A stretch of DNA of 64,000 bases. Origin: Escherichia coli. GTDB lineage: Bacteria; Pseudomonadota; Gammaproteobacteria; Enterobacterales; Enterobacteriaceae. Below, in pieces: positions 2,985 to 8,166 of the stretch (position 1 is the stretch's first letter; each line of letters starts with the position of its first letter). The stretch lies in the NCBI RefSeq assembly GCF_041886205.1, contig NZ_CP169029.1; one strand, given 5' to 3'. The position numbers were made by a program, and so were the translations under genes. Under the pieces are notes generated by a model. It saw nothing but the letters and a program-made list of their open reading frames with translations, did not search any database and was not told the DNA's origin.

Positions 2985-4334
2985 ATGTCTGAAATTGTTG
3001 TCTCCAAATTTGGCGGTACCAGCGTAGCTGATTTTGACGCCATGAACCGCAGCGCTGATATTGTGCTTTCTGATGCCAACGTGCGTTTAGTAGTCCTCTC
3101 GGCTTCTGCTGGTATCACTAATCTGCTGGTCGCTTTAGCGGAAGGGCTGGAACCTGGCGAGCGATTCGAAAAACTCGACGCAATCCGCAATATCCAGTTT
3201 GCCATTCTGGAACGTCTGCGTTACCCGAACGTTATCCGTGAAGAGATTGAACGTCTGCTGGAGAACATTACTGTTCTGGCAGAAGCGGCGGCGCTGGCAA
3301 CGTCTCCGGCGCTGACAGATGAGCTGGTCAGCCACGGCGAGCTGATGTCGACCCTGCTGTTTGTCGAAATCCTGCGCGAACGCGATGTTCAGGCACAGTG
3401 GTTTGATGTACGTAAAGTGATGCGTACCAACGACCGATTTGGTCGTGCAGAGCCAGATGTAGCCGCGCTGGCGGAACTGGCCGCGCTGCAGCTGCTCCCA
3501 CGCCTCAATGAAGGCTTAGTGATCACCCAGGGATTTATCGGTAGCGAAAATAAAGGTCGTACAACGACGCTTGGCCGTGGAGGCAGCGATTATACGGCAG
3601 CCTTGCTGGCGGAGGCTTTACACGCATCTCGTGTTGATATCTGGACCGACGTCCCGGGCATCTACACCACCGATCCACGCGTGGTTTCCGCAGCAAAACG
3701 CATTGATGAAATCGCGTTTGCCGAAGCGGCAGAGATGGCAACTTTTGGTGCAAAAGTACTGCATCCGGCAACGTTGCTACCCGCAGTACGCAGCGATATC
3801 CCGGTCTTTGTCGGCTCCAGCAAAGACCCACGCGCAGGTGGTACGCTGGTGTGCAATAAAACTGAAAATCCGCCGCTGTTCCGCGCGCTGGCGCTTCGTC
3901 GCAATCAGACTCTGCTCACTTTGCACAGCCTGAATATGCTGCATTCTCGCGGCTTCCTCGCGGAAGTTTTCGGCATCCTCGCGCGGCATAACATTTCGGT
4001 AGACTTAATCACCACGTCAGAAGTGAGCGTGGCATTAACCCTTGATACCACCGGTTCAACCTCCACTGGCGATACGTTGCTGACGCAATCTCTGCTGATG
4101 GAGCTTTCCGCACTGTGCCGGGTGGAGGTGGAAGAAGGTCTGGCGCTGGTCGCGTTGATTGGCAATGACCTGTCAAAAGCCTGCGGCGTTGGCAAAGAGG
4201 TATTCGGCGTACTGGAACCGTTCAACATTCGCATGATTTGTTATGGCGCATCCAGCCATAACCTGTGCTTCCTGGTGCCCGGCGAAGATGCCGAGCAGGT
4301 GGTGCAGAAGCTGCATTTTAATTTGTTTGAGTAA
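2985..4334 (+). CDS. lysC: Lysine-sensitive aspartokinase III
   Basis: 449-aa ORF starting MSEIVVSKFGGTSVADFDAMNRSADIV; aspartokinase with C-terminal ACT domains. Confidence 0.98.
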   Translation: MSEIVVSKFGGTSVADFDAMNRSADIVLSDANVRLVVLSASAGITNLLVALAEGLEPGERFEKLDAIRNIQFAILERLRYPNVIREEIERLLENITVLAEAAALATSPALTDELVSHGELMSTLLFVEILRERDVQAQWFDVRKVMRTNDRFGRAEPDVAALAELAALQLLPRLNEGLVITQGFIGSENKGRTTTLGRGGSDYTAALLAEALHASRVDIWTDVPGIYTTDPRVVSAAKRIDEIAFAEAAEMATFGAKVLHPATLLPAVRSDIPVFVGSSKDPRAGGTLVCNKTENPPLFRALALRRNQTLLTLHSLNMLHSRGFLAEVFGILARHNISVDLITTSEVSVALTLDTTGSTSTGDTLLTQSLLMELSALCRVEVEEGLALVALIGNDLSKACGVGKEVFGVLEPFNIRMICYGASSHNLCFLVPGEDAEQVVQKLHFNLFE

Positions 4335-4346
4335 TATTTCCCTACT

Positions 4347-4377
4347 GGCGTATAACGCTCACCAATTGTTATACGCC
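4347..4377 (+). terminator. Hairpin 3' of lysC (possible terminator)
   Basis: 10-bp perfect stem ggcgtataac / gttatacgcc with an 11-nt loop, 13 nt after the lysC stop. No clear U-run. Confidence 0.4.
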
Positions 4378-4478
4378 ATCCTCACTGAAAATATAGATTA
4401 AATAATATCTGAAAAATAAAATCACTCCTGTAGAACAGTATTATAATCACCGAAAAATATTATTTAACAGGAGTGTTA

Positions 4479-5405
4479 ATGGCTACTTTAATGGAAAAAG
4501 ATGCACTTTTAAATGGCACCAGTCAGTGCATCGCGTTTTTATCAAATATCGTTGATAATTGCTCAGTTTCGTCACGTCAGGATTCAGGCGATGATCTCAC
4601 ACGATTAGTCAGCTATCGCGATTATCTTTACTCTACCCCCGCTGAACTTGTTGATTTTACACAGGGAAAGAGTCACCTTCAGCAGATTAGAACTCAATAT
4701 CAGCATGAATTCAACAATACTACGCATTCAGAAAATAAAGCATCTTTTGATTCTATTTGGCAGCGTCTGACAAATCATGAAGTCACACCGCAACAGCATC
4801 CCATTGGTTTTGTTTTAGGTGGGCAACCCGGAGCAGGTAAATCATCTCTGATTGAATTAGCCAAAAGAGAGACAAAAGATAATATAATGATTATTAACGG
4901 TGATGATTTTCGATTTCTACACCCTGATTTTAATTATATCTACCAAAATTATGGGGATGATTTTGTTACCCATACAGCGAAATTTTCCGGCGAAACGGTC
5001 GAACGTGCAATTGAGAGAGCGATAGTCAGTAAACTCAACATTGTTGTCGAAGGAACATTTCGTAATGCCGCTACGCCGTTACAAACATTAAAAAAACTCA
5101 AAGATGCAGGCTACCAAACAGAAGTCATGATAAAAACAACCTCAGCGGCATTAAGCTGGGAAAGCACCAATGAACGGTATAATAAGGACAAAGAGGCGGG
5201 AAATATTGCCCGAAAAGTGGATAAAAACCACCATGATATCGTCACCGGTTTGCTGGCAGAAAATGCCCGCAAGGTGTTTGCTTCGAACCTGTCAGATAAG
5301 TTTGCGGTGTATTCGCGTGAGAAGATGATATTTAGTTCACAAGCGGCAACGAATGACGATATTGCAACGCTTATACAGAATGAAATCAGCGGGAATACAC
5401 AATAA
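4479..5405 (+). CDS. ezeT: Zeta-toxin-family P-loop kinase with an N-terminal extension of about 100 aa (EzeT-like single-chain toxin-antitoxin candidate)
   Basis: ATG at 4479 lies 5 nt after AGGAG (4469-4473). Walker A GGQPGAGKSS is at 4818-4847. The downstream IINGDDFRFLHPDF motif resembles the zeta/PezT catalytic Asp region. There is no separate epsilon-like ORF upstream. The symbol is assigned from recalled domain architecture, not from an alignment. Confidence 0.7.
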   Translation: MATLMEKDALLNGTSQCIAFLSNIVDNCSVSSRQDSGDDLTRLVSYRDYLYSTPAELVDFTQGKSHLQQIRTQYQHEFNNTTHSENKASFDSIWQRLTNHEVTPQQHPIGFVLGGQPGAGKSSLIELAKRETKDNIMIINGDDFRFLHPDFNYIYQNYGDDFVTHTAKFSGETVERAIERAIVSKLNIVVEGTFRNAATPLQTLKKLKDAGYQTEVMIKTTSAALSWESTNERYNKDKEAGNIARKVDKNHHDIVTGLLAENARKVFASNLSDKFAVYSREKMIFSSQAATNDDIATLIQNEISGNTQ

Positions 5406-5431
5406 TAATAAGAGCTGATGGCGTGAAATAA

Positions 5432-5452
5432 CGCCGGGCATCACGCCCGGCG
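5432..5452. terminator. GC-rich hairpin between the convergent kinase and NTase genes (possible bidirectional terminator)
   Basis: cgccgggc-atcac-gcccggcg is an 8-bp stem. The NTase stop codon (5441-5443) sits in the loop. No U-runs on either side. Confidence 0.4.
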
Positions 5453-6241
5453 CATTACCGTCTGGTACATTAAGCTATCCAGTTCCTTAACGTCCCCTTC
5501 TCTGCTATCCGGTAACAGCGGTGGAATTTCCCCACGCGCCAGTTCCGCACGAATAAACGCATGTAACAATGGACGGCGCGGACCATATTCCGCTTCTCCT
5601 GCGCGCTGTTTACGTCCCAGTAATTCGTCTATTTCTGCACGTAACGGCGCATCAAGTTCACTTCCCGCCAGTAGCTCAGCAAAGCGCATTGGCGGCACGC
5701 CTTTTCCCGCTTCGACCCAGCGCACGGCCAGCAGCGGACGCAGCACGTAAAAGTATTTTTTCAGTCGAACTTCATCGCCCTGCAAATATCCGCGGAAGTT
5801 TTTCTGCGCCATCGAATAGTAATGCCAGCGCGCACGCAGCGGAGAAAACCACATTGGGACCATTGCCTTAAGCGCCGTTATCGTTTCTTCATCTTGTTGA
5901 TAGACCACCGGAGAATCCAGCCATTCTATCAGCGTCGGGTTCGCGCCTTTCAATAATCCCAGCGCCTTACGCCACTCCCAACCGGAAACATCTAACTCGT
6001 CGTCGATGGGCAGCTCGATAACATCGCGCGGCGGCTCCACCCGCAGATACCATTCCAGCGGGTGAACATACAAAAACCGTACATCGTAGTCGCTGTCGGG
6101 CGAGGCAAACCCCCAGCCGCGGCTCCCGGATTCACAGGCATACAGCACTTTCACGCCGTAGCGCCGTTCTATTTCTTTTAACTGCTGCGATACCCGTTCG
6201 CGCATCGCAGCACTGACTCCATTTAATGGCATGTTACTCAC
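5441..6241 (-). CDS. Pol-beta-superfamily nucleotidyltransferase, COG3541/PF10127 (RlaP)-like
   Basis: 266-aa ORF with the NTase signature GSRGWGFASPDSDYD (6083-6127; hG[GS]-x9-13-DxD). A helical region follows (WEWRKALGLLKGANPTLIEWLDSPVVY). The GTG at 6241 overlaps the upstream stop; an alternative ATG is at 6232. Confidence 0.75.
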   Translation of the reverse strand: MSNMPLNGVSAAMRERVSQQLKEIERRYGVKVLYACESGSRGWGFASPDSDYDVRFLYVHPLEWYLRVEPPRDVIELPIDDELDVSGWEWRKALGLLKGANPTLIEWLDSPVVYQQDEETITALKAMVPMWFSPLRARWHYYSMAQKNFRGYLQGDEVRLKKYFYVLRPLLAVRWVEAGKGVPPMRFAELLAGSELDAPLRAEIDELLGRKQRAGEAEYGPRRPLLHAFIRAELARGEIPPLLPDSREGDVKELDSLMYQTVMRRA

Positions 6242-7365
6242 CCTTTGATATTAACCAACCCATGCAGAACCTGATCCAGACCGCCAAATACAGAGATGTT
6301 ATCGATCCGCTCAGCCACTCTCTCCAGCGTTTCTAGCTCTTTTAAACGCAACGCTACCGGATTGTTCTCCATGACTTTGGCGGTGTTCAGTAACGAGCGC
6401 GTCGCTGCCGTTTCTTCACGTCGGCGAATCACATTCGCCTGCGCAGATTTCTCCGCCTCAACCAGCTGCGCAAGGATATTTTTCATATCGCCAGGCAGGA
6501 CGATATCTTTCACCCCTAATGAAGCAATCTCCATACCAAATGGCAACATGCGCGATTTCACCTGTTCGCTGACAACGTCATCAATGACCTGTTTATCTTC
6601 CAGCAGTTCATCCAGCGTACGAGTACCTACCGCTTCACGCAGGGCAAATTGCAATTCCCGATACAAATGATCAATCGGCTTCGTTAACTGACTAAATGCT
6701 AATAACACGTCGCTGTAGCGCCAGTTAGCCGCGAGGTTAATCCGCAGATTGACCTTATCTTTCGTTAAGATTTCTTGCCCGCTGACTTCCAGTACCTGCA
6801 AGCGGGTGTCAACCACTTCAGTTTCAACCAGATGGTTAATTTTCCAGTACGCGGTAAGCCCCGGCGGTAACAGCGCCTGCGTTTCACCATCGATTTTCAG
6901 CACGCCTACATGCCAGGCCGGAACCTGCACCGTCAGTATCGCATCGCGGCCTTTAACAACTCCTTTGCGCCGTGGCTGTAATACCGCATTCATCACCTCC
7001 GTTTGTACCGGGACTTGCTGCGTATTCATCCGCACCAGCGTCAAATCATCCTCTACACGCCAGTACAAACGACGCGTTGATGGCAGCAGGATCTCCAGCA
7101 AAATACCGTCCATATACAACGCCCCGGCTTCAGTCTCCGACAAGTCTGCCACCAGGCAATATTTCTCCACCCAATCAGGCTGAAAGCGGCGCAAATAGTC
7201 CGCCAGCACGTCGGGAACTTCGCTACCATCCAGCGTAATCAGCAACACTTCCGGGGTATTAAACCAGGGTAAAAAATGCTCGCCTGCATGTAGCACTTTG
7301 TAGTAATCGCCGTTTCTGGAGAGTAATGCCAGCTGATCTTTTCTTACGCTTATTTTTTTAATCAT
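6238..7365 (-). CDS. SPFH/Band-7 (stomatin/prohibitin/flotillin/HflKC) domain protein with no obvious membrane anchor
   Basis: 375-aa ORF. The C-terminal half carries classic SPFH motifs (QEILTKDKVNLRINL, LREAVGTRTLDELLEDK, FGMEIASLGVKDIVLP, AEKSAQANVIRRREETAA, NPVALRLKELETL). AAGGA lies about 8 nt before the ATG at 7365. No long hydrophobic segment is visible. Confidence 0.8.
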   Translation of the reverse strand: MIKKISVRKDQLALLSRNGDYYKVLHAGEHFLPWFNTPEVLLITLDGSEVPDVLADYLRRFQPDWVEKYCLVADLSETEAGALYMDGILLEILLPSTRRLYWRVEDDLTLVRMNTQQVPVQTEVMNAVLQPRRKGVVKGRDAILTVQVPAWHVGVLKIDGETQALLPPGLTAYWKINHLVETEVVDTRLQVLEVSGQEILTKDKVNLRINLAANWRYSDVLLAFSQLTKPIDHLYRELQFALREAVGTRTLDELLEDKQVIDDVVSEQVKSRMLPFGMEIASLGVKDIVLPGDMKNILAQLVEAEKSAQANVIRRREETAATRSLLNTAKVMENNPVALRLKELETLERVAERIDNISVFGGLDQVLHGLVNIKG

Positions 7366-7518
7366 TATCTATTCCTTGCTTAACAGCCGTCGCGGAAGCA
7401 GACACGAAGCGACAGGGGAATTCCCTTTTGCCTGTTACCCGGCGTCTTTATCGGCGACGTTATCGGGGATCGCTGACTGCGCAATCCCTCATTTTTTATT
7501 TAATAAGTTACAACCAGT

Positions 7519-7650
7519 ATTCATTTCAGGAATGAATGTGGGAATCGAACCCATAATTGGCGTCAAAGGCTGACGGAACACGCCCGGAAAACAGCCTGAC
7601 CGTTCCTGGTGTGCCGACGGGGTTTAACCCCCTTTGAAATTCAGTTTCAA
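7519..7650 (-). ncRNA. Candidate tRNA-like non-coding RNA upstream of the SPFH-NTase operon
   Basis: The minus strand has a canonical T-arm, aUGGG-UUCGAUU-CCCAc (7554-7538). Acceptor-like pairing joins 7645-7639 to 7537-7531 (6 of 7 bp). A cgtc/gacg-closed long arm spans 7619-7561, and there is a small GGGG/CCCC hairpin. The boundaries and the fold are hand-drawn, not computed. Confidence 0.4.
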
Positions 7651-7893
7651 CGCATAGGAGTTATTGCGAGAATCGTGCCAGAAGTAAAAAAAACACCTAA
7701 TCAAATGAAAAATAAAGATTTAATAAATTATTGTTTTTTATTGGGGGAAAACTTTTCGCTAAATTTGTATCTGTATTTATCATCAATTATCAAGAAAGAT
7801 AAATATTTCAGAAGAGAATAAAGGAATATTATCAGTTCTGCTTGCAAATGAATTCCCGTACACTGAATCCATCGGCTCACTGAGGGCACCATC

Positions 7894-8166
7894 ATGGCAC
7901 TCCCCCGTATTACCCAAAAAGAGATGACTGAACGCGAGCAGCGTGAACTTAAAACACTGCTGGATCGGGCGCGGATTGCGCATGGTCGCGTACTGACCAA
8001 CTCCGAAACCAACAGCATTAAGAAAGAGTACATCGATAAATTAATGGTTGAGCGTGAGGCTGAAGCAAAAAAAGCCCGCCAATTGAAGAAAAAGCAGGCT
8101 TATAAACCGGATCCTGAAGCGTCATTTAGCTGGTCAGCAAATACGTCGACGCGCGGCAGGCGCTGA
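7894..8166 (+). CDS. yjbD: DUF3811-family small basic protein YjbD
   Basis: 90-aa ORF starting MALPRITQKEMTEREQRELKTLLDRAR. Convergent with and abutting rluF, as in K-12. Confidence 0.9.
   Translation: MALPRITQKEMTEREQRELKTLLDRARIAHGRVLTNSETNSIKKEYIDKLMVEREAEAKKARQLKKKQAYKPDPEASFSWSANTSTRGRR

Follow-up and report, generated by a model that had tools for sequence, protein, structure and literature searches.

The stretch of Escherichia coli DNA analysed in this study, 64,000 nucleotides of contig NZ_CP169029.1 (NCBI RefSeq assembly GCF_041886205.1) and referred to here as the window, carries on its minus strand a two-gene operon encoding an SPFH/Band_7 protein and the Pol-beta-type nucleotidyltransferase RlaP, preceded by a long structured leader RNA. 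As judged from comparison with homologous loci, this region is probably a reduced descendant of a widespread RNA-repair operon controlled by RtcR and sigma-54, and an orphan within the Rtc RNA-damage regulon. The E. coli island no longer has the ligase gene or the regulator gene, and strong selection has kept the enhancer, the promoter, the leader of ~290 nt, SPFH and RlaP.

Gene Content of the Island

The island measures ~3.5 kb and is wedged into the chromosomal gap between lysC (2985-4334, plus strand) on one side and yjbD (7894-8166), followed by rluF and pepE, on the other. Of 5426 complete E. coli genomes, 1641 (~30%) carry this chromosomal island; at least 80% of its length is held by 1424 complete genomes, with both genes named in the annotations sampled, and in the same search the match of island-less genomes to the window begins only at 7838. 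The SPFH gene (6238-7365, minus strand) encodes 375 aa and the RlaP gene (5441-6232, minus strand) encodes 263 aa from the ATG at 6232, or 266 aa from an alternative GTG at 6241. The TGA stop of SPFH (6240-6238) shares bases with this GTG (6241-6239), and the ATG, which is the start chosen by the NCBI Prokaryotic Genome Annotation Pipeline (PGAP), lies five bases past the stop behind GGGUGAG. Existing annotation names a slipin family protein, a nucleotidyltransferase-domain protein and a zeta-toxin family protein here, and includes no RNA feature.

RlaP matches PF10127 at positions 1-248 of the 249 in the profile (318.9 bits, E 3.4e-95), a family that Pfam titles 'RNA repair pathway DNA polymerase beta family'. 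The protein also contains the Pol-beta catalytic motif (GS...DSD, of the G[SG]...DxD type) as GSRGWGFASPDSDYD; no sequence relative of it was found in the PDB. The SPFH protein matches Band_7 (PF01145) at residues 147-318, above the curated Pfam cut-off (E 8.9e-27), with only weak HflK/C matches in NCBIfam. A sequence-only reading of the same DNA had proposed two coupled minus-strand genes, the first product with an SPFH/Band-7 C-terminal half and the second a Pol-beta nucleotidyltransferase of COG3541/PF10127, and both the arrangement of the start and stop codons and the profile searches agree with it. Proteins of the RlaP type have been predicted to restore lost 3' nucleotides of RNA prior to ligation (PMC7824862, PMC6514570). 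As for an 'RNA ligase-associating' character, RtcB and ATP-grasp ligases are absent from the island, and a ligase gene adjoins RlaP in relatives (L003, L005, L011, L012, L014-L017 and others; locus numbers are those of this study).

Homologous Operons

Loci carrying an SPFH protein of the same clade (84 in total) were collected by tblastn against plasmids and chromids and by scanning 185,579 species genomes with profile guidance. A plain homolog search with SPFH gave only near-identical E. coli proteins, and the diversity came from a representative search, tblastn and the genome scan. RtcR, RtcB, RlaP and the neighbouring toxin EzeT were placed on the 84 loci by tblastn with Pfam checks; single-linkage clustering of neighbouring open reading frames (ORFs) was set aside because of overlapping frames in GC-rich loci, and the tblastn counts were used.

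The usual layout in Beta- and Gammaproteobacteria is a divergent rtcR, a sigma-54 promoter, a tRNA-like leader and then SPFH-RtcB, often followed by RlaP, as in Burkholderia, Pseudomonas, Dechloromonas and others. Citrobacter amalonaticus holds the full set of rtcR and SPFH-RtcB-RlaP in the very lysC-yjbD gap occupied in E. coli, and Citrobacter freundii has rtcR and SPFH-RlaP exactly there. Klebsiella, Superficieibacter, Mangrovibacter and Lonsdalea likewise possess rtcR and SPFH-RlaP without RtcB, and E. coli possesses SPFH-RlaP alone, there being no complete E. coli genome with a Citrobacter-type rtcR or rtcB inside the island. The window therefore contains the most reduced form of this Rtc-type operon. 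That the island is a minimal, ligase-less module of SPFH, RlaP and a tRNA-like RNA had been suggested from its sequence beforehand, and is borne out by the profile searches and by these neighbourhoods, where RtcB, RlaP and RtcR recur with tRNA-like RNAs upstream of SPFH.

Other members of the clade show further arrangements. In Subdoligranulum (Firmicutes), whose operon is SPFH-RtcB-RlaP, a WYL-domain protein and not RtcR is encoded upstream of the RNA (L005 1010-2593), which hints at a swapped ligand-sensing regulator. A conserved gene for an HNH endonuclease of ~190 aa lies near SPFH on the same strand in rtcR-less loci (L022-L024, L029-L031, L038, L043, L046, L056, L060, L061, L065, L066 and L079), mostly upstream and in L060 and L061 downstream, and a small treble-clef zinc-finger protein (zf_Tbcl) is encoded between SPFH and RtcB in seven loci (L012, L016, L020, L021, L026, L035 and L039). 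Cyanobacterial members from Nostoc, Calothrix, Scytonema and others (L064, L068-L084; 43-45% identity) lack a T-loop in the 800 nt ahead of SPFH, and the flanks that were fetched contain no RtcB, RlaP or RtcR; not every member of the SPFH clade is therefore found in an RNA-repair context.

Transcriptional Control

A sigma-54 (-24/-12) promoter, TGGCACGATTCTCGCA, is predicted at 7665-7680 on the minus strand, ~315 nt upstream of the SPFH ATG, and fits TGGCAC-N5-TTGCW; no sigma-70-like site was seen on the minus strand there. The motif stands at the equivalent position in ~30 homologous loci, mostly with a divergent rtcR, and among E. coli alleles it is identical except in the N5 spacer. The assignment draws its weight from this conservation of position across loci, not from rarity of the motif.

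An inverted repeat, TTATC-N6-GATAA (7787-7802, unstranded), lies 121 nt upstream of the promoter as a putative upstream activating sequence for RtcR, and occurs as a single copy in the 64-kb window, where 0.03 would be expected. The shorter form TATC-N6-GATA adjoins the rtcR start codon in 18 of 31 RtcR-linked loci, and in such loci its distance to the sigma-54 promoter, on the upstream side, is 131-133 or 143-146 nt, so that the spacings of 121, 131-133 and 143-146 nt follow steps of about one helical turn. From this pattern we infer that the repeat in the window serves as an RtcR enhancer. The sequence-only reading had included neither the sigma-54 promoter nor the RtcR-type enhancer nor a link to the Rtc regulon, all of which are added here.

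An adjacent divergent rtcR is present in Citrobacter, Klebsiella, Burkholderia and others, and is found in the island of no complete E. coli genome. Between the RtcR encoded at the canonical rtcR-rtcBA locus of E. coli and the island-type RtcR of Citrobacter there is 62% identity, with the C-terminal DNA-binding end largely kept in both, including the identical stretch NDADRLRKYLARFGL, which makes cross-activation plausible. Co-occurrence was assessed in the complete E. coli genomes with a chimeric query of 1.5 kb of the island and 0.8 kb of rtcR, which matched 6497 places in 4858 genomes. Presuming one place per element and ignoring kinship, this implies that ~1639 of the 1641 island genomes also carry rtcR, and that rtcR is present in ~85% of island-less genomes; both places were present in all 14 island-bearing genomes among the matches listed, strain PT62 included. 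Since nearly all island genomes carry the canonical rtcR, the operon is read as an orphan member of the Rtc regulon.

The Leader RNA

Transcription is predicted to start at ~7653, and the 5' part of the leader (7504-7655, minus strand) is predicted to fold into a three-way junction closed by P0/P1, with a hairpin P2 (GGGGG-UUAAA-CCCC, 7619-7632) and a long hairpin P3 (7577-7615). A conserved GURUKCCGYC strand and a linker then precede a T-arm, UGGG-UUCGAUU-CCCA (7539-7553), situated 174-188 nt upstream of the SPFH ATG, which is directly abutted by hairpin P5 (7519-7537). The 3' domain (7366-7503) comprises an AU-rich linker, a hairpin and a long irregular stem that reaches the SPFH ribosome-binding site; all of these elements lie on the minus strand. 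Folding of 7480-7700 as a single sequence was uninformative (z = -0.5), and the structure emerged only by cross-species comparison.

Nine enterobacterial leaders aligned with MAFFT and folded with RNAalifold gave 63 predicted pairs, with compensatory change in 27; pairs touching the promoter (alignment A2 columns 6-21) were dropped, because these columns precede the point where the transcript is predicted to begin. R1, a covariance model covering the 154 positions at the 5' end of the leader, scores 129.7 bits at 7504-7655 and, in a search space of 823 kb, finds sequences outside its training set in Providencia (E 6e-5) and in Burkholderiales, Dechloromonas, Accumulibacter, Rhodocyclaceae and Azonexus (E 2e-4 to 2e-3). 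In the 15 best R1 sequences 88.6% of cells are paired, compared with 73% when shuffled and 39-47% when slid, and double changes occur in 33 of 42 R1 pairs, which 0 of 500 shuffles matched; these figures come from an alignment fitted to R1 itself, which favours the structure, and the MAFFT and RNAalifold run, independent of R1, gave the same helices. The stem of the T-arm covaries through CG, UA and UG pairs (90.7% paired). The 3' domain has a minimum free energy of -47.9 kcal/mol (z = -3.3; 0 of 200 shuffles were equally stable), and its stem also shows compensatory pairs in RNAalifold (A2 columns 257-289 with 324-356). A pairing of the 5' 'CUGAAU' with the strand past the T-arm was considered and rejected, as it is lost in Superficieibacter, Mangrovibacter and Lonsdalea, where P5 persists.

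The relation of this leader to tRNA is clearer in its relatives. Nearly every homologous locus from Proteobacteria has the same T-loop motif ahead of SPFH, with a chance expectation of ~0.15 per 800 nt, and typical loci have a leader with two T-loops 62-79 nt apart. Unit 2 of these leaders is a near-complete cloverleaf that scores 43-54 bits with the Rfam tRNA model and is called 'tRNA-???' or Met by ARAGORN, with an acceptor stem of only 4-5 bp and often a UUCG or GAAA tetraloop in place of the anticodon loop. In 14 of 46 loci, positions 74-76 of unit 1 encode CCA, and in four more the CCA is off by one, where chance would give ~1 in 64. In typical loci (for example the tandem pairs at L023 4080-4236 and L043 4088-4244) unit 1 shows a 7-bp acceptor stem, a discriminator base and, in those 14 loci, the CCA, and directly abuts unit 2, in which a CCA never occurs. 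This layout hints that the enzymes of tRNA processing cut the unit out. In the R1 alignments the E. coli T-arm corresponds to unit 1 and the 'ACUGG' past P5 to the first bases of unit 2, and unit 2 has therefore been deleted in enterobacteria. Neither ARAGORN nor Rfam RF00005, even at E <= 10, calls a tRNA in the window leader, and no other Rfam family matches it. The label 'tRNA-like' is thus accurate for the family and overstated for E. coli: of the tRNA-like element that had been described upstream of the operon on the same strand, the textbook T-arm stands, the E. coli RNA consisting of one T-arm together with a 5' three-way junction and a 3' domain. Elsewhere, L014 gave a sub-threshold Rfam match to YrlA (4101-4163, 24.2 bits with a cut-off of 69, E 0.008, model positions 23-85) that covers the T-arm of unit 1 and the start of unit 2, and Rfam gave no YrlA match in the window leader.

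A possible alternative, though on the less likely side, is that the leader is purely a cis-regulatory 5' untranslated region and not a stable RNA partner, acting as an attenuator or sensor that ties the translation or stability of SPFH-RlaP to a tRNA-binding factor; such a role would be compatible with Rtc control. The RNA is contiguous with the coding region, with no terminator-like or evident processing site on the minus strand between them, so a purely cis-acting role is possible, and the 3' domain extends to the ribosome-binding site. Both proteins are also acidic (isoelectric point 5.5 for SPFH and 6.0 for RlaP), and direct RNA binding is not obvious. On the other hand, the tandem units of relatives pass the tRNA model, and a unit 1 ending in CCA and followed by unit 2 has the layout of excised tRNA genes. 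The Salmonella rtc operon encodes Y-like RNAs within an RtcR-controlled operon (PMC9879122), and the AU-rich single-stranded linker at 7490-7510 may offer an RNase E entry site.

Conservation and Selection

Within E. coli, three diverged alleles were aligned. The enhancer block (7759-7809, unstranded) diverges by 0-4%, the spacer between enhancer and promoter by 17-19%, the 11 nt from the promoter to the predicted start by 27-45%, and the whole leader from ~7653 to the SPFH ATG (288 nt) by 1.4-3.1%, with 0.7-3.6% in its 3' domain. The sharp conservation boundary at ~7653 marks the predicted transcription start. Synonymous divergence reaches 0.13-0.16 in SPFH and up to 0.39 in RlaP (12-39% at synonymous sites between the alleles), and the ratio of nonsynonymous to synonymous divergence (dN/dS) is 0.04-0.09 with the E. 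coli alleles included. In E. coli, purifying selection acts on the leader, the promoter, the enhancer and the two proteins. Compared with L088, the coding region of the window (5441-7365) has a dS of 0.39 in RlaP and 0.16 in SPFH, with only 3% divergence in the leader; the alleles are unusually deeply diverged, which points to allelic lineages of long standing or to acquisition from another species.

These data bear on whether the operon is a decaying, functionless remnant, as might be supposed from the loss of three ancestral components, namely RtcB, RtcR and the complete tRNA-like unit. Such a reading is very improbable, since purifying selection on the leader, promoter, enhancer and proteins argues against it: both ORFs are intact in the three alleles from E. 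coli and the four copies from other enterobacteria that were analysed, dN/dS is 0.05-0.09 between the deeply diverged E. coli alleles, the non-coding elements are far better conserved than the adjoining non-coding DNA, and the wide retention of most of the island described above, with both genes, points the same way.

The SPFH Protein and a Proposed Role in RNA Repair

The predicted model of SPFH (predicted local distance difference test score, pLDDT, 87.5) opens with beta-rich repeats over residues 1-146, continues into the SPFH domain and closes with a helix of 60 residues, so that the alpha/beta fold followed by a coiled-coil helix expected of the SPFH/Band_7 family is present. Among solved structures the SPFH model comes closest to the folds of stomatin, HflK/C and prohibitin, with the vault protein MVP also among the matches. 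These folds, and the 'slipin family protein' label given by PGAP, could indicate a classical scaffold of membrane microdomains or a regulator of proteases, the link to RNA being incidental. This is hardly credible, as the protein appears soluble, with no hydrophobic membrane anchor (the highest hydropathy over 19 residues is 1.13) and hence no N-terminal anchor or hairpin, and no NfeD-type or protease partner is encoded next to it, its only neighbours in the island being RlaP and EzeT. Across the homologous loci its steady neighbours are RtcB, RlaP, RtcR and tRNA-like RNAs or tRNA arrays.

Under the interpretation of the region as a reduced Rtc-type operon, we infer action of RtcR in trans, association of the RNA with protein, oligomerisation of SPFH, a substrate for RlaP and cooperation with RtcB. 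RNA damage would activate the RtcR made at the canonical rtcR-rtcBA locus; Salmonella RtcR responds to tRNA halves with 2',3'-cyclic phosphate ends (PMC7790460, PMC10159003). RtcR would then bind the repeat at 7787-7802 and fire the promoter at 7665-7680, giving a transcript from ~7653 that would begin with the folded leader, in which the T-arm may stack on a hairpin between the three-way junction and the 3' domain, and continue into SPFH and RlaP. The membrane-less SPFH may assemble into a ring or cage, like other SPFH proteins and the vault protein, and together with the leader RNA would form a platform on which RlaP restores nucleotides to trimmed RNA 3' ends. RtcB, supplied in trans from rtcBA, would reseal the ends repaired by RlaP, so that the island products would complement RtcB and RtcA.

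Several observations weigh against this interpretation. The sigma-54 motif by itself is not unusual in the window, with six one-mismatch matches where 3.3 would be expected; the RtcR enhancer has no experimental definition in the literature searched; and the region upstream of canonical rtcBA holds a repeat only loosely similar to that at 7787-7802. The co-occurrence of island and rtcR is given without correction for phylogeny, and the complete tRNA-like unit has been lost from the E. coli leader. To these may be added the two points raised above in favour of a purely cis-acting leader, the unbroken course from leader to coding region and the acidity of both proteins. The sole experimental datum located in the literature searched is also negative: deletion of PaFlo8, a possible counterpart encoded inside the Pseudomonas aeruginosa rtc locus as an SPFH gene, produced no phenotype in assays of growth, virulence, motility, biofilm or peroxide (PMC13086221).

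A bolder version of the proposal, speculative and rather unlikely as a whole, is that SPFH forms a cytoplasmic vault-like cage that, with the T-arm leader, captures damaged tRNAs or rRNA fragments for RlaP and RtcB, making a bacterial 'mini-vault' ribonucleoprotein. In E. coli it would have become a detachable accessory to the Rtc regulon, with RtcR driving it in trans. Tied to this version is the view that SPFH proteins of this clade may act as guards of GOLLD RNA and of the large arrays of tRNA genes carried by phage-like elements. In two uncultured Gammaproteobacteria (L060 1171-6150, L079 33-4169) an SPFH homolog lies just downstream of GOLLD RNA (RF02032, ~154 bits) inside arrays of at least 25 tRNA genes, with RtcB and RlaP downstream in L079. 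A third case of the clade at the end of a tRNA array is a 94-kb IMG/VR contig (L090; 33-4551, 5001-6029), in which a single array of 35 tRNA genes is immediately followed by an SPFH homolog with 37% identity. Such placement of SPFH homologs beside large tRNA arrays also speaks for the interpretation as a reduced Rtc-type operon. The scan of viral contigs gave four relatives only, one of them E. coli-like.

Neighbouring Genes

The operon appears to end at an intrinsic terminator hairpin (5425-5453, minus strand; CGCCGGGC-GUGAU-GCCCGGCG followed by UUAUUU), which covers the RlaP stop codon, lies between the convergent RlaP and EzeT genes, and first came up as a sub-threshold SorX-like stem-loop in Rfam. 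The convergent gene (4473-5405, plus strand) encodes a 310-aa protein with matches to PezT (E 5e-33) and zeta, and its counterpart in strain SRY157 is WP_000212693.1. This is EzeT, a characterised, self-inhibited single-chain toxin-antitoxin encoded beside lysC, a UDP-N-acetylglucosamine (UDP-GlcNAc) kinase with an N-terminal cis-antitoxin domain of 80-100 aa (PMC10532202, PMC4826407). The EzeT gene was not found in the loci of other genera on the tblastn map of the 84 loci, and it is frameshifted in the O145 strain RM12275-C1, in which SPFH and RlaP are intact. EzeT is an independent module, unrelated to the operon. The zeta/PNK-like kinase noted in the sequence-only reading as the only neighbour is thus the EzeT toxin and is not conserved with the operon, and a role for it as the RNA 5'-kinase of the module was rejected, given its known activity and the frameshift. 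In strain PT62, the closest genome, the island is 100% identical except for an IS1 insertion inside window positions 4335-5500, at the EzeT end. The same lysC-yjbD site in Citrobacter freundii (L002 1254-1945) houses a RelE/ParE-XRE toxin-antitoxin pair beside rtcR, and the gap thus behaves as a hotspot for accessory modules.

An accessory island in ~30% of strains, beside a toxin and at a site that elsewhere also holds a toxin-antitoxin pair, could be an anti-phage or abortive-infection defence in a variable hotspot. It is improbable that the operon is such a system: PADLOC 2.0 has no match for SPFH or RlaP and only one marginal, partial match for EzeT (E 0.0026), no recognisable effector or toxin domain is encoded in the operon, and the partners conserved elsewhere are RtcB, a repair enzyme, and RtcR, a repair regulator. 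The operon also stays intact where EzeT is frameshifted. An abortive-infection role, proposed in the sequence-only reading, is therefore unsupported.

Relation to Known Systems

Genetics has revealed much about the Rtc RNA-repair system of E. coli, and less about its substrates and helpers. With two genes, one RNA, no ligase or regulator of its own and apparent wiring to the resident RtcR, the E. coli variant is a tractable model for asking what role a cytosolic SPFH scaffold plays, what RlaP adds to RNA ends and why repair operons carry tRNA mimics. If the interpretation as an orphan Rtc operon is true, the RtcR/sigma-54 regulon of E. coli reaches beyond rtcBA in a strain-dependent manner, which bears on how strains differ in their tolerance of antibiotics that target the ribosome and of toxins that target RNA.

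The kind of system itself is one already predicted computationally: the survey by Burroughs and Aravind (Nucleic Acids Research, 2016) reportedly describes an RNA-repair module of Band-7/SPFH, RlaP and a tRNA-like RNA. The island has the same two protein families and an upstream structured RNA with tRNA features, and its relatives share the linkage to RtcB and RtcR. The module reportedly comprises SPFH, RlaP, a cognate structured RNA and ligase or end-modifying enzymes; three of these four components are in the island, the ligase being available only in trans from rtcBA. The island differs in having no ligase, end-healing enzyme or regulator of its own, and in an RNA made up of one T-arm and non-tRNA domains. 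What seems to be new is this E. coli variant without ligase or regulator, with its retained enhancer and promoter and its near-obligate co-occurrence with rtcR, as well as the anatomy of the leader, with a family-wide 5' junction domain and the loss of unit 2, and the identity of the neighbour as EzeT.

Among characterised systems, the canonical E. coli rtcR-rtcBA locus has the same type of promoter, an RtcR close to the island type, and a presence in nearly all island-bearing genomes. It differs in encoding the enzymes RtcB and RtcA behind a short, unstructured leader, where the island encodes a scaffold and a nucleotidyltransferase behind a long, structured one. SPFH-NfeD pairs and their like, such as QmcA-YbbJ and HflK/C-FtsH, share the SPFH domain and the coiled-coil helix with the window protein, which unlike them has no membrane anchor, no NfeD partner and another gene context. 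The eukaryotic vault particle, composed of MVP, vault RNA and TEP1, also counts among the closest systems, MVP being one of the SPFH fold matches. The Salmonella rsr-yrlBA-rtcBA operon, in which Ro60 is encoded with Y-like RNAs that have a tRNA-like domain under RtcR and sigma-54 (PMC7790460, PMC9879122), shares the sigma-54 promoter and divergent rtcR with relatives of the island. Its scaffold is Ro60/TROVE and not SPFH, its RNA is unrelated in sequence, and it has RtcA where the island has RlaP. Shared with the island family are non-coding RNAs that mimic tRNA inside a repair operon and, alongside RtcB, a scaffold that forms a ring or cage, as SPFH may do.

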